Positions 2,469 through 18,744 of a stretch of DNA of 18,744 bases are shown here, piece by piece; the first letter of the stretch is position 1, and the number at the start of each line of letters is the position of its first letter. The stretch lies in IMG/VR virus record IMGVR_UViG_2636415906_000001. One strand, given 5' to 3'. This DNA is from a virus (taxonomy: Duplodnaviria > Heunggongvirae > Uroviricota > Caudoviricetes). The position numbers and the translations under genes are program-made. The notes under the pieces are model-generated. The model saw nothing but the letters and a program-made list of their open reading frames with translations, was not told where the DNA came from and searched no databases.

Positions 2469-3431
2469 TTATTCAATATCAAATAAATGCCTTGGGAAAC
2501 CGTTATTATCAGGTAATCCCATGGCTGTCAGGTTACATCCTGGTAAGTTAGGCTTGTTATCTACAAGGTTGGCAACTTTTTTTATCCAGTCAGATCCCGG
2601 TCCAATTTTTTTCACTAAAAACCATAACACAGCGATCATTCCGTACATTCTTTCGTACGCATCATCATTCATATTTAATTGCTCAAAGTACGGCTCATTT
2701 GGCAAAGGCATTAATCTTGGTTCGTTGACCTTGTTCCAGATGCGTGAATGGTGAGCGCACCGATTCCTTAGCACATTCATTGCGCTAAGCCAGTTTTGGA
2801 AGATAGCTCCATTGCCTGCCGCTATCCCTAGCCTAGATAGTATCCTGTTGCGATAGCTGTCTTTTAGCATCGCATAATACTTTGACATTAAGCCGAAGTC
2901 CCATACTTCAATAACCACCCAGAAAGGAAGACCTTCGTACTTGTTTTCATGCCATTTGATAAAGTCTTCGCGACTTTTAGCAATCTCGGCATTATGTTTA
3001 TTTATCCATTCTTCTCTGGCGCTTGGGCGACCATGGGAACGTGGTCTAAAGTGTTTTGGATTTATTAGCGAGTCATCAAGATATGCTAAAGGAGATATCT
3101 TACCAAGCTCATGAGCAATAACTGACCGAACATAAACCTCAATGCGTTCTAACGCATTCATCATCTGCAAACGCAGATTTTTATCGAATAAATAGAGGTC
3201 ATATACTGCGCGAAAATTAGTACCTGGACGAACCTGATCGAGTCTGGTTCTAATATTGTCTGTTGTTATATGGGGGATTCGGCAGGGGTACCAAAAGCCT
3301 GATAATCGGTAGTAGCCTACTTGTGAGATTTTCTTGATAGCATGTTCGCGATCTGGCACATCCATACCCCGAGACAGCAATAAATCGACAAGTTCATCAT
3401 ATTCTTTATGAACCTTAACCGGAACAGCCAT
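2469..3431 (-). CDS. Abortive-infection protein, Abi_2 family (AbiD/AbiF/AbiD1-like), 320 aa
   Basis: Abi_2 hallmarks as I recall them: N-terminal EYDELVDLLLSRGM...GYYRLSGFW and the central motif LRNRCAHHSRIWN. The gene is visibly AT-rich compared with the core operon. Confidence 0.85.
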   Translation of the reverse strand: MAVPVKVHKEYDELVDLLLSRGMDVPDREHAIKKISQVGYYRLSGFWYPCRIPHITTDNIRTRLDQVRPGTNFRAVYDLYLFDKNLRLQMMNALERIEVYVRSVIAHELGKISPLAYLDDSLINPKHFRPRSHGRPSAREEWINKHNAEIAKSREDFIKWHENKYEGLPFWVVIEVWDFGLMSKYYAMLKDSYRNRILSRLGIAAGNGAIFQNWLSAMNVLRNRCAHHSRIWNKVNEPRLMPLPNEPYFEQLNMNDDAYERMYGMIAVLWFLVKKIGPGSDWIKKVANLVDNKPNLPGCNLTAMGLPDNNGFPRHLFDIE

Positions 3432-4681: not shown

Positions 4682-6799
4682 CTAGTCATTATCTGGATCA
4701 TTAGATAGCCAAGTAATGATGCCCAGTCTGGCGATGGTCCGTTTTTCCTGTTCAGGAAGAGAGTTAAAAAAACTCTTCCATTGAGGGGAGCGCCTGATAC
4801 GTGAATCAACAATGTGCCCAGGCGCTTTTCCGTGTAGATTTTTTACTGCGCTCTGGAAGGCTGGCGAGGCAATTAATTTATCCGCAGCATCAGCCGCCCC
4901 TGCTCCACCAGCTAATCGAGCTTTACTCGCCAATCTTGCTCCAATATCAGCCCCAGCAATGGCTCCAAGCGATCCAAAATGAGCGCCTACCATCGTGCCT
5001 ATTTTTTGAATGTGTTTTGCTGCTAGTTCGTATGGAGCTGTTACCCGATTAAATCTGTTTACAAACTCATTCAGCTTACCAGTAGATATTTCATGCGCTT
5101 TAGCATTTTTTATTGCTCTGGCAACTTTGTATACATCATATAGTCCGCTCATTGTTTCTTTTGGCAAATGTTCAGCCAAAGTCTTTAGCTGTCCACTGTG
5201 TTGCAAGTTTTGCCACCAATCTGCAAAGCCAGATGGATTAAAGTCGGCCCCACGCTTCCCAGAGGAAAGCATATCTCTTAATGCTGTTCCTACTAGCTCC
5301 CTTCGCAATGTTCTTGATGGAGTATTTTGCATAATCTCACGAAACCCTCTCGCATCACCTTTTGCCATAGATTGAAGAGAATTCGTTACTTTATACGCTA
5401 TATCCCCATTAAGTGTTTTCCCGCGAAGATTTACCATTTGCCTTTCTAAGTTTTTTCTCATAGCTACAAGGCGTTGTGCGACTTCGAAATCTCGCAAGTA
5501 TCCAGTATTGGATAAGACAGATTTTTGGTCTTCAGCTAAAGCTCCATATAGTCTTGATAGCGCTTCTTTATCAGCATCTTTGTATGGCCCCTGCTTTTTA
5601 TTTAGGGCATCACCAACTAAACGCCTTTGCCTGTTTAAATTTGCATACGTTAGGATGCTATCTGGGCCGGGGTTTATTGCTGTAAAAACTCGCTTTTCTA
5701 TTGGGTCAAGATTATCCCACCCTCCTAAATCATCAGCGATTTTTTCCAGCATAGTGCTTGTGTTATTTGCTTCGACTTTTGTTCTTGGTGATAGAGCGGA
5801 ATCAACACGTTTATATAACTGATCACTACGGTTTTTTAGTGCTTCCATTCTACTATTTATCTGATAAATATATTTTTCGCTCATAGCTAACGCATCTGGC
5901 GCACCAGCAACATCATCGATTATCTTGCCAGCACTAGAGGCTAATTCGCTTATTGCTTTATCTTCTTGAGCTTTTAACGCTGATCCTGTCCGTGACTTTA
6001 GGGCTTGCTCTACAGCTTGGTATTGCTCATTTCCTGATAAATGAGAAGGAAGAACTGAATCAACATGAAGCCTATTTGCAGCCTCAACAATTTCTTTCTG
6101 AGGTTTTAGATCTAGCCCTTCAAGCGAAGAGGCAAGATTTGGGTTGCCTTGTGCAGATAACTTACGAATTTTCTCTTCGGCAGGAGTAATCCCCTCAATA
6201 TCTGGAATCGAAGAAACATTCTTCTTGGTTAATTTCCCAGCTATTTTATTAATTGCAGGGCCAGCAAGTTCGGCTACAGGGCCAGCCACAGCGCCAATAG
6301 CAGCGCCGGAAGCAACATCGCTATTTGTTCCATTGGCTACAATAGCCCCTTCTCCAGCACCAAGCCCTGCGGCGGCAGCCAGTCTTGCCGCCCCTTTGGG
6401 AACCTGAGAAATAATCCCACCACCACTAACAAATGGCGCTGCTTGTCCAACGAACTCACCAACATCTTGTGCGGTTGATGGTTTTGCCGCTAACTTCTGC
6501 TGTAGAGACTGAATTGCGGCTTGCTCTTCTGGTGTCATATCCTGAAACAGGCCAACACCTTTACCAACATCCATCAATCCACTGAGAACGCCATACATAA
6601 AACGGTCGAAACCGTTAGCATTATTAACAACATTTTCCTGTCTGGAATTTTCCTCTGGTGAAACCAAAGGTGATTGCTGCTGTTCTGGTTGGGCATCAAG
6701 CACAAAACCATCAGGAAGCTGTGAACTATCAGGAAACTGTGAGTTATCAGGTTGTTCATCGAGCACAAAACCTTCCGGTAAGATTACATTTGCTGCCAT
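4682..6799 (-). CDS. Large hypothetical protein (705 aa): acidic repeat N-terminus, Gly/Ala-rich segment, coiled-coil-like middle; no recognisable enzymatic motif
   Basis: Long uninterrupted ORF with ATG start at 6797-6799, overlapping the upstream 451-aa gene by 16 nt (translational coupling). N-terminus LPEGFVLDEQPDNSQFPDSSQLPDGFVLDAQPEQQQ; AAAAGLGAGEGAIVANG...GAVAGPVAELAGP tract. No signal peptide or Walker motif seen. Confidence 0.8.
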   Translation of the reverse strand: MAANVILPEGFVLDEQPDNSQFPDSSQLPDGFVLDAQPEQQQSPLVSPEENSRQENVVNNANGFDRFMYGVLSGLMDVGKGVGLFQDMTPEEQAAIQSLQQKLAAKPSTAQDVGEFVGQAAPFVSGGGIISQVPKGAARLAAAAGLGAGEGAIVANGTNSDVASGAAIGAVAGPVAELAGPAINKIAGKLTKKNVSSIPDIEGITPAEEKIRKLSAQGNPNLASSLEGLDLKPQKEIVEAANRLHVDSVLPSHLSGNEQYQAVEQALKSRTGSALKAQEDKAISELASSAGKIIDDVAGAPDALAMSEKYIYQINSRMEALKNRSDQLYKRVDSALSPRTKVEANNTSTMLEKIADDLGGWDNLDPIEKRVFTAINPGPDSILTYANLNRQRRLVGDALNKKQGPYKDADKEALSRLYGALAEDQKSVLSNTGYLRDFEVAQRLVAMRKNLERQMVNLRGKTLNGDIAYKVTNSLQSMAKGDARGFREIMQNTPSRTLRRELVGTALRDMLSSGKRGADFNPSGFADWWQNLQHSGQLKTLAEHLPKETMSGLYDVYKVARAIKNAKAHEISTGKLNEFVNRFNRVTAPYELAAKHIQKIGTMVGAHFGSLGAIAGADIGARLASKARLAGGAGAADAADKLIASPAFQSAVKNLHGKAPGHIVDSRIRRSPQWKSFFNSLPEQEKRTIARLGIITWLSNDPDND

Positions 6800-8127
6800 T
6801 TTCCGTTCCTGTAAATGATTTTCTGACCAGTTTTAGGGTTGGTTGCCGTTGCGCCTTCTGATATTCCTCCGGTTGCCGCTTTTGCCTGTCCAGTGCCAGC
6901 CTGTGATGTAGGCTGCCCGGAAACATCGTCAAATAGCTTCGCTTTCCTTCTTTCAAGGCTTTTTCTTAGCCCCTGAGGAATAGTTTCTCCATATGTATCG
7001 AGATACTCGTCAACCTGCTGGTTAAACTGCTGCCCCATAGCATTGGCGTTGATTTTTGCGGCGTTAACAATGTTATCCTTTGCCTCCTGCGACAGGCCGT
7101 TTCCAGCATTAAGCTGGTCTATGTATCCTTTGATTTGTCCCCATATGCCATCAGACCGCATTACCTGAACCTGTTCGCCTTCACGAACGACTGACTGCGG
7201 GTCAAGAGATTTCATGTAGTTGAAGATAATCCCAAGTTGGGCAGCGCCAGTATTTACCTTGCTAAGGGCTTGCAGAGAGTTTGCCGCCGCTCTGACAGAG
7301 TTATAATTTTTGCCAAAATTGGTAATGTCAGAATTTAATCCCTTAATTAAGTCTGCTGACGGCTTACCTTTTTGCCCCAGCTCCATTAGCTTCAATCCCA
7401 TCTCATCTGAGTGAATTTGTGCTCGCTGAGCCCTGTCTAGTTGAGCGTTCTGGATATTTGCCCATCCTCTCGCGTTCTCCATGTCAGCCTGACGCATACT
7501 TTCATCCAGTCGCCCTTGCTCAAGTCGACGACCTTCCATTTGATCTTTGATATCGAAATACTTCTCATGACCGAGAGAAAACAGCGCCAGATTACCTGCG
7601 AAATGCTGGAAGCCCTGCGGGTCATTAACCTGCATTTCAGCAATAGTTTCTGGAGGGATACCTAAACGACGCATCTCCTGCTCATTATCCATCATGAACC
7701 TGCCAAATGCGCCCTGACCAAGCGATGAGGCTACCTGTGCTTTGAGCGCCAGATTGCCATAATCATCCCTTTGAGCATCATCGACATAACTCATCCCTTT
7801 ACGGACTTCCTCAAACTCTTCTGGGAATGCTGTAATAAGATTACGCATCTGCTCCCTGTCACCGGACGCATAAGCATCTGCATAACCTTTCTGGAATGCC
7901 GCTTTACGCTCCTGCTGTTGCTGCTGCTTATAAATATCAGCAACTCCAGCCAGACCACGAAGACCTGTCAGAGCAACGTTATTTGCACCTGATCGAGCCA
8001 GTTCATTGTTTTCGCGGATCAGACCAAGCGTTGCGTTAATGTCGCTTGCCTTTGGCGCATTCTCATTTTGCGTACCGATGCCAGCCAGAAAACCACCAGA
8101 ATTAATACCCTGTTGCCACGTAGCCAT
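6784..8127 (-). CDS. Hypothetical coiled-coil, Gln-rich protein (about 447 aa from ATG 8127; ORF track extends to GTG 8139)
   Basis: Long ORF; the ATG at 8125-8127 overlaps the stop of the upstream 57-aa ORF. QQQQQ run and low-complexity A/Q/N/G-rich sequence. No enzymatic motif recognised. Confidence 0.8.
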   Translation of the reverse strand: MATWQQGINSGGFLAGIGTQNENAPKASDINATLGLIRENNELARSGANNVALTGLRGLAGVADIYKQQQQQERKAAFQKGYADAYASGDREQMRNLITAFPEEFEEVRKGMSYVDDAQRDDYGNLALKAQVASSLGQGAFGRFMMDNEQEMRRLGIPPETIAEMQVNDPQGFQHFAGNLALFSLGHEKYFDIKDQMEGRRLEQGRLDESMRQADMENARGWANIQNAQLDRAQRAQIHSDEMGLKLMELGQKGKPSADLIKGLNSDITNFGKNYNSVRAAANSLQALSKVNTGAAQLGIIFNYMKSLDPQSVVREGEQVQVMRSDGIWGQIKGYIDQLNAGNGLSQEAKDNIVNAAKINANAMGQQFNQQVDEYLDTYGETIPQGLRKSLERRKAKLFDDVSGQPTSQAGTGQAKAATGGISEGATATNPKTGQKIIYRNGKWQQM

Positions 8128-8131
8128 AAAT

Positions 8132-8305
8132 TTACCCACGTCCAGTTAAAGTGTAAGCCAGCGCCTTATCCATTAATCCCCGAGCAATTTCGTGGATCGT
8201 TGGCGCAACTCCTACCTCTGATTTTTTACGCTGCTCCTCCTGAATTTTCTTTATCGCTTCCATTTGCTTCTCACTTATCAATACTGGCTTTACTGAAATA
8301 GCCAT
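8132..8305 (-). CDS. Small protein (57 aa, MAISVKPVLISEKQMEAIKKIQEEQRKKSEVGVAPTIHEIARGLMDKALAYTLTGRG), first gene of the operon; possibly RHH-like
   Basis: Below the ORF-track length cutoff; translated by hand. Strong RBS AAGGGGG 4-5 nt upstream of ATG 8303-8305. The stop overlaps the start of the 451-aa gene. Confidence 0.5.
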   Translation of the reverse strand: MAISVKPVLISEKQMEAIKKIQEEQRKKSEVGVAPTIHEIARGLMDKALAYTLTGRG

Positions 8306-10041: not shown

Positions 10042-12393
10042 TTAAAAAACATCATAACCCCCCATACCGATCAGACGGGCAAACGCAGCCTGTAGAACTC
10101 CGACCTCTGGTAGTTCGTAGAACACGCCATTCCCTCGGTCTGGTCTTCCATGCTTCACCAGCCCCATTTGTGCAAGTGATTTACCCAGTAGTGATCTGGC
10201 TGCTGGCTCTTTAAGCTTTTCCCCACGCTCAAGCGACCACGCTACAAATCGACTAACCATATCCTTTGCAAACAAACGGACTTCGCCATTAAACGGAGGT
10301 TCATTGATTAGCTCGCCATAAAGAAACAATTCAACGCCAGACAGCCCCAGCAAGATTTCTTCACGTAAGGCATCGGTCTGTGGCGCTCGTTGAGGGTCAA
10401 AACCTGAGAGATCCACCCCTTTAAGATGCCAAAGCAACTTTGCGGCACCGCCATCATTAAGCCAACTGTACAGCCGATCAAAATACTCCCGACTCTGTGC
10501 TTTTTCAGGAGATGGCTCAAGCACGAGATAGCGACGCTCTCTTATCCCTGCCTGTAATACCTGTGTGCTGTTACTGGCAAATATCAACCGGGCAAAATTC
10601 GGCATTGGTTCAGCATCAATTCCCTTGCGCTCAAGGTTAAACGTCGGTTCGCTAATAATCGCTTTAAGTCTGTCAGCTTCAGACGGCTTGTGGATCGTCA
10701 CTTCGTCAGCAAATACCAGTAGCTTGTTAGCAAGTATTGAATTGAAGCGCCCTGAAATATGTCCCGCCCCGTTAATGTGGGCGGCGTACTGCCCCAGTAT
10801 TTGCAGCAGCGGTTTAACCGTTGTGCCTTTCCCTGTGCCCGGGACAGATTTCATCACGATTGCCACGGACGGTTTTTCATCAGGCTTTTGGATAATGTGC
10901 GCCATCCACTGGATAAGATATTGGTATGCCTCCTCATTACCGGCACAGACAACCTGCAACAGGTGATTAAGGTATACCGTGCAATCTCCTTCAATTGGTT
11001 CCAGTGCCAGCCCCTCATACAGATTAAAAACATCGTCAGGGCATTTGTCTGGTACTGGATAAAATCCTACGCCTCCTGGCTTGTAGTTCTTCCCACTCCA
11101 TGACAGCCACGCCGATCCCGCCAGCTTTCTGGCGACTCTCGGTTTATGATGAAAATAATGCTGAAATTGTGATAAATCCTCGAAAACGTGCGATACACCG
11201 CCGGTTTGAGAAGGCTTTAGCGACACCACCTTGTGTTTCCCGCCGATGGTGACATGCGTAAACGTCCGGTTGATTTCTTCGAGGACAGCAATTTCATCAT
11301 CGCTTAACACCTCGCCAGAACTGATCTCATTCAGCGCCCCGACTGACTGTTTGTGATTTTTCACCTGCGCCCCTTTCCCCCGTGGCTGGTACATCGAATC
11401 TTTAAATGCTGCTGTGGCTGCCGCCAGCCCGTGTTGTTGGTGATAGTCGTTCCAGTCGGCTTTATAGTCAGTCGGTGGCAGAGACACCCAGCCAGCTACG
11501 GAAATAGCGGCCCTCTCTGCGGCATCTTTCCCCGTGTTGATCCCTCCACTTTCGGAGTTTCCTTGCTGGTGATCGTTATCTGCGGCAATGATGATTTGTG
11601 CCTGTGGATATGTTCTGCGCATGACTTCCGCTACTGGCAACAGGTTGCCAGCGTCGATTGCTGCCACTGTCATTGCGTCAGGGCGAATTAAATGGCACGA
11701 CAGGGCGGTAGCCACCCCCTCAGCAATTATGATGCTGTGAGGTCGTTTCTGTGCGTTTATGGCGTGATATGCCCCCCGCTTTGCTGAACCTGTCAGGAGT
11801 CTTTTTTCACCATGTGAGGTAATAGTCTGTGCTGCTGTTACTGCGCCGGATTTATCCACCAGCGCCAGCAACAGAGATCCATCGGGCAACACGGGGAATG
11901 TAAAATCACCTACCCCTTTCGCAACCAGATAATCAGATTTGCCGTTTACAGCCTTTCTGCGCATGTCATCAAACTGACGGGAAAACGTATCCCGTCTTTG
12001 TTGTTCGTCCTTCTCTGCCCTTTTCAGGCGCTCCTGTTCGCGTCGCTGGCGCTCGGTTTCCAGTTGTTCCCGTTTCTGGCTGGTGGCTTCTGGTGTTTCC
12101 GTTGTCCGGTAATCAATACCCAGAACATCAGCGGCAAGAAGCGCCGCCTCTGTTGTGTCGCAGTTATTTACGCGTTTAATTAAATCCAGCCCATCACCAG
12201 CGCCGCACTGATTACAGATGAAGCTACCGCGCCCGTTGTCATCGAACCGGAATCGATCTTTGCCCCCACATGCAGGGCAGGGAGCATGACGGCGCGGAGA
12301 GTCAGGGACATTTATGTTCAGGCAGCCCAGCACATGAGGCCAGTTGTTTTCAGACGCACTGATAACCTGACGGATAAGATCAATGTTTCGCAT
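10042..12393 (-). CDS. P4 alpha-like primase-helicase (zinc-binding N-terminus, TOPRIM primase, C-terminal P-loop NTPase/helicase), 783 aa
   Basis: Cys-rich motif CPACGG...CNQCG near the N-terminus; toprim-like IIIAEGVATALS and AADNDHQ; Walker A VPGTGKGT in the C-terminal half. This is the typical P4-family satellite replication protein architecture. Confidence 0.9.
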   Translation of the reverse strand: MRNIDLIRQVISASENNWPHVLGCLNINVPDSPRRHAPCPACGGKDRFRFDDNGRGSFICNQCGAGDGLDLIKRVNNCDTTEAALLAADVLGIDYRTTETPEATSQKREQLETERQRREQERLKRAEKDEQQRRDTFSRQFDDMRRKAVNGKSDYLVAKGVGDFTFPVLPDGSLLLALVDKSGAVTAAQTITSHGEKRLLTGSAKRGAYHAINAQKRPHSIIIAEGVATALSCHLIRPDAMTVAAIDAGNLLPVAEVMRRTYPQAQIIIAADNDHQQGNSESGGINTGKDAAERAAISVAGWVSLPPTDYKADWNDYHQQHGLAAATAAFKDSMYQPRGKGAQVKNHKQSVGALNEISSGEVLSDDEIAVLEEINRTFTHVTIGGKHKVVSLKPSQTGGVSHVFEDLSQFQHYFHHKPRVARKLAGSAWLSWSGKNYKPGGVGFYPVPDKCPDDVFNLYEGLALEPIEGDCTVYLNHLLQVVCAGNEEAYQYLIQWMAHIIQKPDEKPSVAIVMKSVPGTGKGTTVKPLLQILGQYAAHINGAGHISGRFNSILANKLLVFADEVTIHKPSEADRLKAIISEPTFNLERKGIDAEPMPNFARLIFASNSTQVLQAGIRERRYLVLEPSPEKAQSREYFDRLYSWLNDGGAAKLLWHLKGVDLSGFDPQRAPQTDALREEILLGLSGVELFLYGELINEPPFNGEVRLFAKDMVSRFVAWSLERGEKLKEPAARSLLGKSLAQMGLVKHGRPDRGNGVFYELPEVGVLQAAFARLIGMGGYDVF

Positions 12394-15708: not shown

Positions 15709-16140
15709 TTAGGCGGCGTTAAACGCGTCCGGGTAGAGTTTCAGAATGTCGGCAATTTCCTGCTGAGAAAGTCCGTTGTGATCATTTATGTTCGCAAGAT
15801 GGTTAACATGAGTGATCACTTTCAGAACATCACCACGGCAGGAGAAACGGTAGCGAAGGTGTGTTCCGATACCATCAGGATTCTTTTCGTCGATACGCTC
15901 CAGAGTGATTCCAAGCTGGCGTTCTAACTCTGTTGCATAGTTACGACCAGAAGACAGACGGCAGTAGCGAAGAATGTCATTTTCTGTCCATCCCTCTATA
16001 CCAGTACGCAGCATATAGACTCGGGCACGATGCTTTTTCGGTGTGCGCTTTGGTGCTTGAAGGGATTTTGTAAGGGGCGTAATATCAGATACGCGAATAT
16101 CTGAATTAGCCGCCTGTAATGGGCGGTTTTTCTTTTCCAT
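15709..16140 (-). CDS. Hypothetical basic protein (143 aa)
   Basis: The ORF start overlaps the alpA stop (ATGA). No family recognised. Confidence 0.6.
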   Translation of the reverse strand: MEKKNRPLQAANSDIRVSDITPLTKSLQAPKRTPKKHRARVYMLRTGIEGWTENDILRYCRLSSGRNYATELERQLGITLERIDEKNPDGIGTHLRYRFSCRGDVLKVITHVNHLANINDHNGLSQQEIADILKLYPDAFNAA

Positions 16141-16358
16141 CAGGCCACCTTCCCGCGGCGTTCTGCCAGCCAGTTATTAATTTCCACCGCATCAAACGCA
16201 GTCACGTTATCTGTTAGCTTCACTGGGCGTGGAAGAGTGCCATTTTTAACCCATCTATCAATAGTAGGCAGTGAAACACCTAGCAATTCCGGCATGCGAA
16301 AGCGACGGATGTATCCAGTTGTTGGGATAGCTGATGATGCTGGCTTGTGTGCTGTCAT
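16140..16358 (-). CDS. alpA: AlpA-family prophage transcriptional regulator / excisionase-like protein (72 aa)
   Basis: IRRFRMPELLGVSLPTIDRWVKNGTLPRPVKLTDNVTAFDAVEINNWL matches the AlpA (Phage_AlpA) HTH pattern. Position between int and the primase operon is typical of P4-like and CP4-57-like elements. Confidence 0.8.
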   Translation of the reverse strand: MTAHKPASSAIPTTGYIRRFRMPELLGVSLPTIDRWVKNGTLPRPVKLTDNVTAFDAVEINNWLAERRGKVA

Positions 16359-16440
16359 ATCTCTAGTAACCTCTCTGATAGCTCATGAAGTTACTTAAAG
16401 TTTAGTGGTTGCCCATACAGTATTTCTATTAAGACTAGAA

Positions 16441-16492
16441 TCTATTGAAAGAAATTATAAATCTATTGAAAAAATACCGATCCACTGAAAGA
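16441..16492. repeat. Three direct repeats (tctattgaaa, tctattgaaa, ccactgaaag) at about 21-bp spacing in the AT-rich region upstream of alpA; candidate operator or arm-type sites
   Basis: Copies start at 16441, 16462 and 16482, in the 470-bp intergenic region between the 216-aa gene and alpA. Confidence 0.5.
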
Positions 16493-16828
16493 TTGCAAAT
16501 GCAGGTGGGATAATTATTTTCTTTATTTTCAATTAGTTACCAGTTTAAAAAATCATTGTTTTATCAAAGAGTTATATCTTTCATCGTCATTCATCATGTT
16601 TTTACATTTCTTTTTATCTTTTATTATTCAATTGGTTGAGTCGGTTTATAATGGCTCATGATGGCTTAAAATGGCTAATGATAGCTGGCGTATCTTTTAG
16701 AGATGGGGTGATTACAGATGAACTAAGCCGAACAGATATAGCAATAGCTAGGCGAGAATTATCTATGCTGGTGGAGATGGGTAAACAGGTAATGCCCCGC
16801 CATTGCTTTGGAGGGGCGTGAAAAGTGA

Positions 16829-17479
16829 TTAGTCGAGATCGTGGACAGCTAATAAAGCCCGTGAGATTTTTTCTAGGAATGTGGCTTTTGCTATTCCTTT
16901 ATGGGATATCCCTTCATCCTTGATTAAGGTTTCTATGTCACGGTATATAGCTGTGCGATTAGGTTTCCCATTTTGGATGTAGGAAGATGAGCCTGATTTT
17001 TTTATCAGCAGATGTACTATCAACCCCATCATTTTCATTGTCCCGTTTTCCTCATCCTGCTTTCTATGCTGCCCACGTCCGCTGCGGTTGGTTTCTTTGA
17101 TGTAGTTTACTAACTGGAGTCCTCCAAGGTTTCGGGCTTTTTCTTCCCAGCCCTTGGTGCCACGCAAATCATCAATCGCTTCTGATATTTTCTGAACAAT
17201 TATTTCTGGTGTATTTGTGTCAATAAATGGGTAAGAAGCTAAGAAAATATCAAGGGCATGGCAAGGCTCATCTTTACTAGTTTTTTCACCTCTGTACACC
17301 TTGATAGCTCTGGCAAGATGAGTTCTGACAAAATCGACATATTCGAAATTTTCCTCAGGCACATCGCTAATGCGCATAGATGGGTTTAGGCCAGCCAAGG
17401 CCACAGCCATTTCATGAGGGGTAATCGATACAGATGAACAAAGCCGTTCGATTGGCGATTTTCTCAAGATGTTGTTCAC
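16829..17479 (-). CDS. Hypothetical protein (216 aa) translationally coupled to the integrase; GTG start
   Basis: GTG at 17479 overlaps the int stop (GTGA) with GGAGG 5-6 nt upstream. AT-rich relative to int. No family recognised. Confidence 0.65.
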   Translation of the reverse strand: MNNILRKSPIERLCSSVSITPHEMAVALAGLNPSMRISDVPEENFEYVDFVRTHLARAIKVYRGEKTSKDEPCHALDIFLASYPFIDTNTPEIIVQKISEAIDDLRGTKGWEEKARNLGGLQLVNYIKETNRSGRGQHRKQDEENGTMKMMGLIVHLLIKKSGSSSYIQNGKPNRTAIYRDIETLIKDEGISHKGIAKATFLEKISRALLAVHDLD

Positions 17480-18744
17480 ATTTGCCTCCGGGCTTTATCG
17501 AATGGCGTTACGTTGTAGTCTTTCCCGCTTTCCAGTGCCACCAGCAGATCTGCCCACTGTGCCAGTGCTGCTTTACGCTCATCAAAATACTGATGACGGT
17601 TATAAATCCCCTCTACGCCCTTAATGCGATGATTGAGGCATCGTTCCGCCACGACAGGATCAACACCCAATGCTGCTAAATGAGTACGTGCGGTGCGTCG
17701 GAAGTCGTGAATCGTGAAATTAGGCACATCCGGCATTTCGGCGCGAACCTTAGCCAGTGCTACGGGTAAAGTGCTTTCCTGAATATGTGGGATCATTCTG
17801 TTTTGCATCTTCCTGGCCGGAAGCACCCATGCGCTATTACATGAAAAGGTGTGTAGCTCTCTCAACCATTCAACGGCTGGGGAAGGTAGAGGTATATCAA
17901 TAGGGTCTCCGTTTTTGCTGCGTTCTTCCGGCAAATGCCATACCGCACCATCTAAATCAAACTCTTCCCATCGTGCGGCGCATAACTCCATCTTACGAAC
18001 GCATAGTGCCAGCAATAGCTTAAATGTCAGTTCGTTCTGGCGGCTGAATCCTTTTGCGGTGCGCATAGCCTCGAATAGCCTGATAAGCTCATCGCGAGTT
18101 AGCCAACGGTCGCGGGAAACCTCTTTACCACCAGCATCAGATACTTCAAACGCTGAACAAGGGTTTATCTCCAGAGCGTGGCGTTTTATCCCATAGTCAA
18201 AGATACGGCGTGTCCAGCGTAATACATCTGTTGCTATCGTTGGTGCTCCTCGGTCAACGATACCTTTTAACATGTCGTCAATGTGACGTGGCTTAACGTC
18301 CTCTACCTTCATATGCCCAATGCAGGGGTTAATATCCTTATCAATTCTCCGGCGAAGGATATCGGGATGTTTCCATCTCGGAAGTATCTGGCGCTCGAAG
18401 TATTCGGAGGCCAGATCTGAAACACGCATGGCGTTTTTCTCAGCCTCCATTTTTGCCAGTGCTTCAGCTTTTCGTTCCTGTTTCTCTGCTGCTACGTCAT
18501 AGCCAAGAGCAACTCTGGCTGACAGCTCTTTTGCTGTTTCTCTGGCTTTTGATAGTGACAGTTCGGAGTAAGAGCCTATAACCATAGCCCGCTGCTTTCC
18601 TGCGAGCTTATAGCGGAATCGCCAGAACGGGACTGTGTAGTTTTTGGGGTAGCAAATATAAAGGCCGTTGCCGTCTGCCTTGCCATCAAATCTGTCTCCC
18701 GCCTTTATCCATGCGCGGATCTGCATATCTGTGAGTTTTGGCAT
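17476..18744 (-). CDS. int: Tyrosine site-specific integrase, P4 family (422 aa); start codon is the last three bases of the window
   Basis: N-terminal arm-binding-like region (GLYICYP...WRFRYKLAGKQRAMVIGSY), catalytic-domain motifs HDFRRTARTHL and LNHRIKGVEGIYNRHQY (R/H-x-x-R and the Tyr nucleophile). Confidence 0.9.
   Translation of the reverse strand: MPKLTDMQIRAWIKAGDRFDGKADGNGLYICYPKNYTVPFWRFRYKLAGKQRAMVIGSYSELSLSKARETAKELSARVALGYDVAAEKQERKAEALAKMEAEKNAMRVSDLASEYFERQILPRWKHPDILRRRIDKDINPCIGHMKVEDVKPRHIDDMLKGIVDRGAPTIATDVLRWTRRIFDYGIKRHALEINPCSAFEVSDAGGKEVSRDRWLTRDELIRLFEAMRTAKGFSRQNELTFKLLLALCVRKMELCAARWEEFDLDGAVWHLPEERSKNGDPIDIPLPSPAVEWLRELHTFSCNSAWVLPARKMQNRMIPHIQESTLPVALAKVRAEMPDVPNFTIHDFRRTARTHLAALGVDPVVAERCLNHRIKGVEGIYNRHQYFDERKAALAQWADLLVALESGKDYNVTPFDKARRQM

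Follow-up and report, generated by a model that had tools for sequence, protein, structure and literature searches.

A conserved four-site direct-repeat array upstream of alpA in an EcCIMP1-like chromosomal island of Escherichia coli and its linkage to an integrase-coupled gene

What is the role of the short direct repeats that lie upstream of alpA in IMG/VR virus record IMGVR_UViG_2636415906_000001, a stretch of DNA of 18,744 nucleotides, here called the window, that is an EcCIMP1-like phage-inducible chromosomal island (PICI) of Escherichia coli? The picture since 2018 has been that AlpA turns a Gram-negative PICI on and that the helper phage turns alpA on, with the inducer and any repressor unidentified (PMC6092414). 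A preliminary description of the window had noted three related 10-mers in the gap before alpA, had considered the alpA promoter likely to be in that gap, and had offered two roles for the repeats, as operator sites for a repressor of the element or as sites for an activator encoded by the helper. We find that the repeats are real and that they form an array of four direct repeats with the consensus TTTYRNWRGAW on the alpA strand. We consider it very probable that this array works in cis at the promoter of alpA to regulate the gene. More tentatively, and with slightly less than even confidence, we propose from comparative sequence data that it is a four-site direct-repeat operator array bound by the product of ORF216, the gene between the integrase gene (int) and alpA, which would act as a repressor of the alpA promoter. 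Neither the array nor ORF216 was found in the searchable literature. What is new here is the motif, the four-site geometry and the partnership with an unclassified, int-coupled protein, while a direct-repeat operator array at the master promoter of a satellite is of a known kind.

The gap between the int-proximal open reading frame (ORF) and alpA was correctly described as 470 bp long and AT-rich (16359–16828; GC content 0.28–0.38), and within it TCTATTGAAA does occur twice, as an exact match on the + strand at 16441–16450 and 16462–16471. The third copy had been given as ccactgaaag at 16482. The copy that is in register with the other two is TCCACTGAAA at 16481–16490 (+ strand), and the three copies follow one another at 21 and then 19 bp, not at 21 and then 20 bp. 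Three copies thus exist as noted, with a fourth overlooked, TCTATTAAGA on the + strand at 16425–16434, which lies 16 bp to the alpA side of the first. The real units are 11–13 nt long rather than 10, and the two-helical-turn phasing that had been proposed for them holds for one of the three intervals and fails for the other two. Read on the – strand, which is the strand of alpA, the array begins with the distal site 1 (16481–16490; TTTCAGTGGA), which can be aligned gap-free with site 1 of every related array, and continues with site 2 (16462–16471; TTTCAATAGA) 19 bp from site 1 and site 3 (16441–16450; again TTTCAATAGA) 21 bp from site 2. It ends with the promoter-proximal site 4 (16425–16434; TCTTAATAGA) 16 bp from site 3, an interval that measures 16–17 bp in every lineage.

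The array is not a chance product of AT-rich sequence. In the 18.7-kb window, all matches to the 13-mer with at most two mismatches are the three copies first noted. When the 470-bp region was shuffled with its dinucleotide composition preserved, a pair as good as that observed arose in 7 of 1000 shuffles and a triple as good in none of 1000. The four-site architecture reaches a score of 39 out of a possible 40; none of 200 shuffles exceeded 33, and unrelated loci, P4 among them, scored no higher than 32. Covariance models of Rfam, run on the intergenic region, returned only a sub-threshold match to CRISPR-DR10 (21 bits against a gathering score of 39) at 16782–16824.

The array is conserved well beyond the window. 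Loci were collected in three independent ways, through AlpA (20 species genomes), through ORF216 (19 metagenome loci and 7 IMG/VR loci, with six look-ups of distant members) and through the motif alone, and no fewer than nine lineages, found in Escherichia, Klebsiella, Yersinia, Serratia and metagenomes, keep the array in sequence, orientation and geometry. When ten distinct intergenic regions are aligned, conservation is highest in the four sites and does not extend to the spacers, which is the pattern of an operator array, with a motif conserved in orthologous regions whose spacers have diverged. Among 44 sites from 11 lineages, scored so that TTTYRNWRGAW was favoured and mismatches were tolerated, the successive positions of the consensus are matched by T in 40, T in 38, T in 43, Y in 43 and R in 44, then, after the unspecified sixth position, by W in 44, R in 44, G in 44, A in 44 and W in 44; no site departs from G9 or A10. 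Successive intervals measure 19, 21 and 16 bp in the lineages of E. coli, Klebsiella and metagenomes, with the group of locus L173 among them, 20, 21 and 16 bp in L048, and 20, 20 and 17 bp in Yersinia and Serratia, and the total span is 56–57 bp in all lineages, with the orientation relative to alpA constant. Locus L166, with an ORF216 homologue at 26% identity, keeps this layout and shows a deviating motif, TTTTATCGGAC, which is the sole hint of site and protein changing together. Comparison within E. coli is uninformative for footprinting: 110 of the 5426 complete genomes carry the 470-bp region, nearly all of them with an identity of at least 98.5%, and blastn searches for distant relatives in E. 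coli genomes returned only near-identical copies. No E. coli record among the matches listed carries an annotated feature beneath the region.

With which gene does the array travel? The answer is ORF216 (16829–17479, – strand; 216 amino acids), whose start overlaps the int stop codon and which is our candidate for the cognate regulator. In the first 22 loci, tblastn with ORF216 gave matches in L001, L007 and L010 only, and these are exactly the loci that bear the array; the array is absent from 18 loci with other genes between int and alpA, and in 17 loci of this kind ORF216 finds no match. Eleven of the array-less loci have an integrase about 86–90% identical to that of the window, and the closest of them an alpA about 89–93% identical. 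Wherever a further ORF216 homologue precedes an alpA-type gene, the array is present. These homologues comprise groups at 68–72% identity, L048 at 31%, Yersinia enterocolitica (L163) and Serratia fonticola (L167) at about 24%, and the L173 and L189 groups, and the downstream gene in L173 encodes a 94-residue AlpA-like protein that went undetected by AlpA queries. A three-site pattern scan of all IMG/VR found 21 arrays, 19 of them with an ORF216 homologue about 0.5 kb upstream, and for the remaining two the locus stops before the upstream DNA is complete. The array occurs with at least three types of AlpA (that of the window, an EcCIMP1-like type in L048 and the 94-residue type of L173), with integrases that are 63–100% identical, and with primases of both the DUF5906 and the DUF927 type, and it tracks none of the three.

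The sister islands that lack the array (among L003–L022) carry instead a different gene of 250–340 codons between int and alpA, about 1000 bp upstream of alpA (which begins at position 3001 of each locus), of at least three types and partly mosaic. The proteins of these cassettes had no match in Pfam, NCBIfam or PADLOC, and similarity of ORF216 to other proteins encoded between int and alpA was rejected, the probability given by hhalign being 0.1%. Each type of cassette has a palindrome or direct repeats of its own just upstream of alpA, for example TCGCAACGAAAA..TTTTCGCTGCGA and GGTACAGTA..TACTGTGCC, and no core promoter is common to the different types. EcCIMP1 likewise carries a different allele at the alpA promoter region, without the repeats described here. 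The unit that is exchanged between islands runs from the int stop codon to a hairpin in the alpA leader, and the alpA promoter lies within it.

Where, then, is that promoter? The alpA gene, which the array is positioned to control, lies at 16140–16358 on the – strand and encodes a 72-residue protein with the Pfam domains Phage_AlpA and HTH_17. The 3' half of site 4 contains a putative –35 hexamer, TAGAAA (16423–16428, – strand), and 18 nt after it lies a putative –10 hexamer, TAAACT (16399–16404, – strand). In relatives the hexamer at the –35 position is TGGAAA, TGGAAT or TAGAAT, and a TAnnnT hexamer (TAAACT, TACACT, TAGACT, TAGAAT, TAAAGT or TAATCT) stands 18–19 nt past the 11-mer of site 4 in 11 of the 12 lineages tabulated. 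We infer from this comparison that the alpA promoter is TAGAAA-18 nt-TAAACT, with a predicted transcription start near 16392. The claim that the region holds the alpA promoter is thereby strengthened, the four sites being the best conserved and a conserved, –10-like TAnnnT following at a constant 18 nt from the –35-like hexamer under site 4, with the promoter itself putative. A scan for consensus promoters does not report the pair, because only 8 of the 12 consensus positions are matched. A perfect TATAAT on the – strand between sites 2 and 3 (16459–16454) was also considered as the –10 element. It is not conserved, relatives having TTTAGT, GATATA, CTGTGA and other sequences in its place, so it was not taken as the promoter and the conserved TAAACT was preferred; the TATAAT at 16454–16459 is probably a chance feature of AT-rich DNA. 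In EcCIMP1 the equivalent region, from –449 to +50, is a helper-induced promoter that is boosted by AlpA (PMC11773190).

The predicted start coincides with the beginning of a conserved inverted repeat, AGTAAC..GTTACT (16365–16395, – strand), which lies in the 5' leader of alpA, encloses the Shine-Dalgarno sequence and marks the downstream border of the exchangeable cassette. Its arms vary between loci and yet stay complementary, with compensatory changes in five of eight pairs over 16 loci, and, with the structure specified by hand, 84% of the stem is paired, as against at most 44% when the 3' partner is slid by one to three columns. RNAalifold, run on an automatic alignment of the alpA leader, gave no consensus structure. 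The inverted repeat could act in the RNA, as a hairpin that governs translation, or in the DNA, as a palindromic site. At the other end of the intergenic region, just past the stop codon of ORF216, there is a GC-rich stem, GCCCC..GGGGC (16794–16817, – strand), which is not followed by a run of T, and relatives have a stem of other sequence at the same place.

Based on the position of the array and on its linkage we propose a mechanism in which the product of ORF216, as the most likely binder, acts at the alpA promoter. The array would span about –98 to –33 of that promoter, and site 4 would coincide with its weak –35 element, such that occupancy of the array would decide whether RNA polymerase starts at alpA; transcription of alpA would in turn, through AlpA, set off the entire satellite cycle. 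ORF216 is translationally coupled to int, and its product is therefore expected to be made in the integrated, quiescent state. In that state the ORF216 repressor would sit on the –35 element and the region upstream of it, and a product of the helper phage would relieve it, by analogy with Stl of the SaPIs and with the P2-type C repressors that act on direct repeats. We favour ORF216 as the binder because the association is exclusive in both directions, across genera and with different integrase, AlpA and primase partners, and because everything between the int stop codon and the leader is exchanged, as expected if the gene of the cassette sets the regulation of alpA. We favour repression because of the coupling to int, with the quiescent-state expression that it implies, and because site 4 lies on the –35 element, as in P2 Hy dis. 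In that phage the half-sites of the direct repeat bound by the C repressor span the –35 element, and the C repressors of the P2 family act on direct repeats two to three helical turns apart that span a –10 or a –35 element (PMC2995052). Between the two roles that the preliminary description had offered, an operator encoded by the element thus fits better, given the strict co-occurrence with ORF216, and the helper-encoded activator stays as its rival.

The ORF216 protein itself gives little guidance as to function. The family is very small, with 35 representatives at E ≤0.001 among 1.84 billion cluster representatives, and in the contexts seen the gene abuts or overlaps the end of the upstream integrase gene: in L161 and L168 it starts at the integrase stop codon, while in L165 it overlaps a short upstream ORF. 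Locus L168 also carries Abi_alpha and Mrr-like genes. A profile search of the Protein Data Bank (PDB) with ORF216 gave no match at E values up to 10. PADLOC gave no match for ORF216 or for five other proteins of int-alpA cassettes, in a search in which the positive controls, P4 cII and the AbiD-like gene of the window, were matched. A first AlphaFold2 model was poor (predicted local distance difference test, pLDDT, 65) and its Foldseek matches were meaningless. The second, built on a deeper alignment, is confident and all-helical (pLDDT 90.6; predicted template modelling score 0.60), and ORF216 may, to judge from this model, have a new fold. A resemblance of its C-terminal IS.KG...STF..K to a resolvase-type helix-turn-helix (HTH) is unsupported.

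Several points weigh against ORF216 as the repressor. A weak –35 element overlapped by the last direct repeat suits an activator, PhoB-like or Cox-like, equally well, and a model in which ORF216 is itself the activator, the last repeat standing in for the –35 element in the manner of PhoB-type promoters, fits the data nearly as well. The link between ORF216 and the array is a co-occurrence of adjacent DNA, and a cassette that is exchanged whole would give the same pattern. The motif is near-constant while ORF216 diverges to 24% identity, with a variant motif only in L166. The protein has no recognisable DNA-binding domain and no match in Pfam, NCBIfam or the sequences of the PDB, and a Foldseek search of the pLDDT 90.6 model against the PDB and BFVD gave no match, the best E value being above 1. 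Distant homologues, about 23% identical, occur in islands without alpA and without the array (L161, L165 and L168; one E. coli cluster has 1438 member sequences). A scan finds no intrinsic terminator between ORF216 and alpA, the stem past the ORF216 stop codon not being called. Finally, in P4-like satellites the place beside int is the main hotspot of anti-phage cargo (PMC13586616), and ORF216 could therefore be cargo.

Could a protein of the helper phage be the binder? We regard this as the leading alternative, unlikely on balance and nevertheless to be taken seriously. An early protein of the helper would occupy the four repeats as an activator and bring RNA polymerase to the alpA promoter, which is weak, in the manner in which P2 Cox activates P4 PLL, and ORF216 would be cargo, for example for anti-phage defence or interference with the helper, that travels with the array through a shared helper lineage or through mere adjacency. 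The known physiology is compatible with it. The alpA promoter regions of Gram-negative PICIs are silent until the helper is induced, and no repressor is known (PMC6092414, PMC11773190). In EcCICFT073, AlpA is an auto-activating master activator and the helper induces alpA, with the repressor unclear and the inducer unidentified; there the induction of lambda or phi80 lysogens of C600/594 turned on an alpA promoter fusion carried on a plasmid, which fits a direct action of a phage product on the promoter, and the phage-encoded inducer was described as still under study (PMC6092414). P2 Cox binds direct repeats upstream of P4 PLL, which drives the AlpA homologue vis, and derepresses P4 (PMC3936717). 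Three of the points already raised, the weak –35 element overlapped by the last repeat, as at activator-dependent promoters, the constancy of the motif while ORF216 diverges, and the cargo hotspot, also speak for a helper activator. Against it, blastn found no similar array in 50,697 deposited phage genomes, and every IMG/VR array that could be evaluated lies in a satellite-sized contig downstream of ORF216. The lack of a PADLOC match also counts against ORF216 as cargo, and the strict two-way association, across genera and across integrase, AlpA and primase types, exceeds what loose co-adaptation to a helper would predict.

The remaining explanations, in which the repeats are origin iterons, sites for host architectural proteins or AlpA auto-regulatory sites, are improbable even when taken together. 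The first of them, to which we attach only a small probability, is that the repeats are iterons of a replication origin and the AT-rich region a P4-like ori bound by the primase-helicase or by an accessory initiator. The origin of P4 lies at the same position, upstream of vis, with three tandem 10-bp repeats and TGTTCACC iterons. The distal half of the region, here and in relatives, does have 10-bp tandem arrays and GTTCAnC-like repeats beside AT-rich DNA. In the window these are a 10-bp tandem array at 16643–16690, which reads ATGGCTCATG ATGGCTTAAA ATGGCTAATG ATAGCTGG on the + strand, and GTTCAnC-like repeats at about 16704–16735, which are not counted in the four-site array. Every ORF216 lineage has 10-bp tandem repeats of its own at this distal position: AGTTGCCATC four times in Yersinia, CATTCAACAG six times together with ACACGTAATG and a GTTCATC series in L173, and repeats that resemble P4 GCTTTAAGTG in Serratia. 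On the P4 map the same position is occupied by ori type 2 repeats, which are 10-bp tandem repeats, and type 1 repeats (TGTTCACC), with Cox binding nearby. It is likely the distal repeats, not the four-site array, that are the counterparts of the P4 ori and Cox-box elements.

The four-site array, by contrast with these P4-like distal repeats, stands in fixed register with the –10-like element, and its motif is unrelated to TGTTCACC. The type 1 iterons of P4 are bound by the C-terminal domain of the alpha primase, and it is in the C-terminal half that the primases differ between the window and L001, two islands with identical int-ORF216-alpA regions and a 100% identical intergenic region. Their primases (10042–12393, – strand, in the window; 11239–13995 in L001) have only the N-terminal 351 residues in common, at 86% identity, and the C-terminal halves are different, of DUF5906 type in the 783-residue Zn-ribbon/Toprim/DUF5906 protein of the window and of DUF927 type in the 918-residue protein of L001, which is a domain swap inside the replication gene. 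On this comparison primase iterons were rejected as an explanation for the four-site array. More widely, the array accompanies both types of primase, the set of repeats does not track primase type, and loci without ORF216 lack the array whatever their downstream replication genes.

Scarcely any weight goes to the view that the repeats are architectural sites through which a host nucleoid protein (IHF, Fis or H-NS) shapes an AT-rich promoter region. The IHF core consensus is WATCAANNNNTTR. The region has 27–36% GC, the motif is constant across host genera, and some copies resemble that core, such as TATCAATAGATTT in L007. The invariant G9 and A10, however, fall outside the IHF consensus, whose TT is not conserved here; four sites at a fixed 19/21/16 geometry would be atypical; and a host protein gives no reason for confinement to ORF216 cassettes or for absence from sister islands in the same hosts. 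In an informal comparison with known motifs, none of those for IHF, OxyR, DnaA, ArgR, RcsB and, as RNA, CsrA fits the invariant positions.

The least probable of the readings graded here is auto-activation by AlpA, which is a positive autoregulator in EcCICFT073 (PMC6092414) and EcCIMP1 (PMC11773190) and belongs, with the excisionases, to proteins that commonly bind direct repeats, though this fold usually binds at a spacing of about 10 bp and not of 16–21 bp (PMC3936717). AlpA proteins that are 89–93% identical are found downstream of array-less and quite different regulatory regions (L003–L009), and AlpA proteins with only 33–58% identity, or belonging to another subtype, follow this same array (L038–L040, L048 and L173). 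AlpA as the binder was rejected, as AlpA type and array do not co-vary. Arm-type attP sites for the integrase, which would be expected no more than a few hundred bp from the att core, were rejected on distance, the array lying about 2.3 kb from the att-side end of int, and on the lack of co-variation with int.

How far might the arrangement extend? Taking the window and its sister islands together, we suggest, as a joint claim about which we are doubtful, that Gram-negative PICIs of this type may be controlled by more than an activator and a phage inducer, and may have a swappable cassette of regulator, operator and promoter in the int-alpA interval. ORF216 with its array would represent one allele, and the 250–340-residue proteins of L003–L022 with palindromes or repeats of their own would represent others; the protein coupled to int would be the master regulator through which the helper is read out, and ORF216 would found a family of DNA-binding proteins without relatives in fold.

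The rest of the window is consistent with its assignment as a PICI. Every long ORF is on the – strand, and the genes follow the PICI order, with int at one end (17476–18744, – strand; Pfam Arm-DNA-bind_3, Phage_int_M and Phage_integrase), then alpA and the primase gene in the same direction, no capsid or lysis genes, and a size in the PICI range of about 10–20 kb. Excision, replication and packaging of the island would, to judge from its gene content, be induced by a helper phage. Next after alpA in – strand order come ORF143 (143 amino acids), a gene for an AntA-family protein and a gene for an Ash-family protein, a segment that is 97.6% identical to EcCIMP1; onward towards the primase gene the identity is about 93%. 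The similarity to EcCIMP1 ends at about position 16150, so that alpA, its upstream region, ORF216 and int form an allele other than that of EcCIMP1. EcCIMP1 is the PICI of E. coli MP1 and is mobilised by the P22-like phage Kapi1, with helper induction demonstrated there (PMC11773190). Two large genes at 4682–8139 (– strand) encode homologues of P22-type ejection or DNA-transfer proteins (phrog_917; phrog_6704/phrog_770), as in EcCIMP1. Such genes are out of the ordinary for a satellite, and they hint that the helper phage is P22-like. The far end is occupied by an AbiD-like abortive-infection gene (2469–3431, – strand; 320 amino acids; PADLOC AbiD, 2.7e-57; phrog_2158), which is probably anti-phage cargo, and a PerC-family regulator is annotated in the part of L001 that matches positions 1465–1752 of the window. 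The genes that flank the island in strain AHM8C212RI are yicC and dinD.

The importance of the array is that an element of about 70 bp and one uncharacterised gene make a pair that can be tested directly. We regard ORF216 as the best candidate, on comparative grounds, for the regulator not yet identified in these elements. Should its product bind the array, this would give a handle on how the helper is sensed in a widespread family of islands, with related elements also in Klebsiella, Yersinia, Serratia and Enterobacter, and would add a DNA-binding fold without known relatives. Should a protein of the helper bind it instead, the array would be the bait with which to find the inducer.

Which known systems does the array resemble? 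At PhoB-type promoters direct repeats stand in phase, with the proximal unit replacing the –35 element and further units upstream. The array is like the pho boxes in having its proximal repeat at the putative –35 element and the others upstream, and unlike them in motif, in that a pho box has an 11-bp period within it, and in that its binder is a response regulator of the host. The alpA region of EcCIMP1, in an island of the same family, is likewise a non-coding region of about 430–470 bp upstream of alpA. There, though, the alpA allele is 32% identical, ORF216 is absent, the upstream region has a normal GC content, and the repeats are others (TCTTTTATAAAAGA twice and a 15-nt inverted repeat), with no TTTCAATAGA array.

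The logic that we propose is closest to that of Stl (Rpr) of the SaPIs and other PICIs, a satellite-encoded, SOS-insensitive regulator that acts in the quiescent state at the promoter of the lytic cycle, is highly diverse between islands and is the seat of helper specificity (PMC6092414). The likeness is one of logic: stl is transcribed divergently from its target genes, while ORF216, coupled to int, runs in the same direction as the genes that it would control; ORF216 has no similarity to Stl in sequence or fold, Stl entries appearing in the Foldseek lists at E of about 6; and Gram-negative PICIs have been described as using the activator AlpA.

In P4, as here, a non-coding region with direct repeats upstream of a promoter, PLL, precedes an AlpA/Vis homologue at the head of an operon that ends in the primase gene, and the switch-on that depends on the helper works through this region, which the ori repeats of P4 share. 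The Cox boxes of P4 differ from the array: they are 9-bp TTAAA(G/C)NC(A/C) sequences every 10–11 bp, bound by a protein of the helper and unlinked to any satellite gene, whereas the array has a spacing of 16–21 bp, an unrelated motif and a strict link to ORF216. P2 Cox boxes and P4 ori type 2 repeats come in about six or more copies at 10–11 bp, while the array has four copies of TTTYRNWRGAW at 16–21 bp, and the distal 10-bp repeats of the window at 16643–16690 are the better positional counterpart of the Cox boxes.

In P2 the C repressor is encoded in the same operon as int. The C repressors of the P2 family differ from what we propose in that the array has four sites and not two and its 11-bp motif is unrelated, in that ORF216, with 216 residues, a predicted binding activity and no fold match, has no similarity to the 99-residue HTH protein C, and in that the gene under control is the satellite activator alpA and not a phage early operon. 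They resemble it in acting on short, non-palindromic direct repeats, which at the Pe promoters of P2, P2 Hy dis and WPhi lie 2, 2.5 or 3 turns apart and are bound cooperatively, and in forming many heteroimmune classes, each with an operator of its own (PMC2995052).

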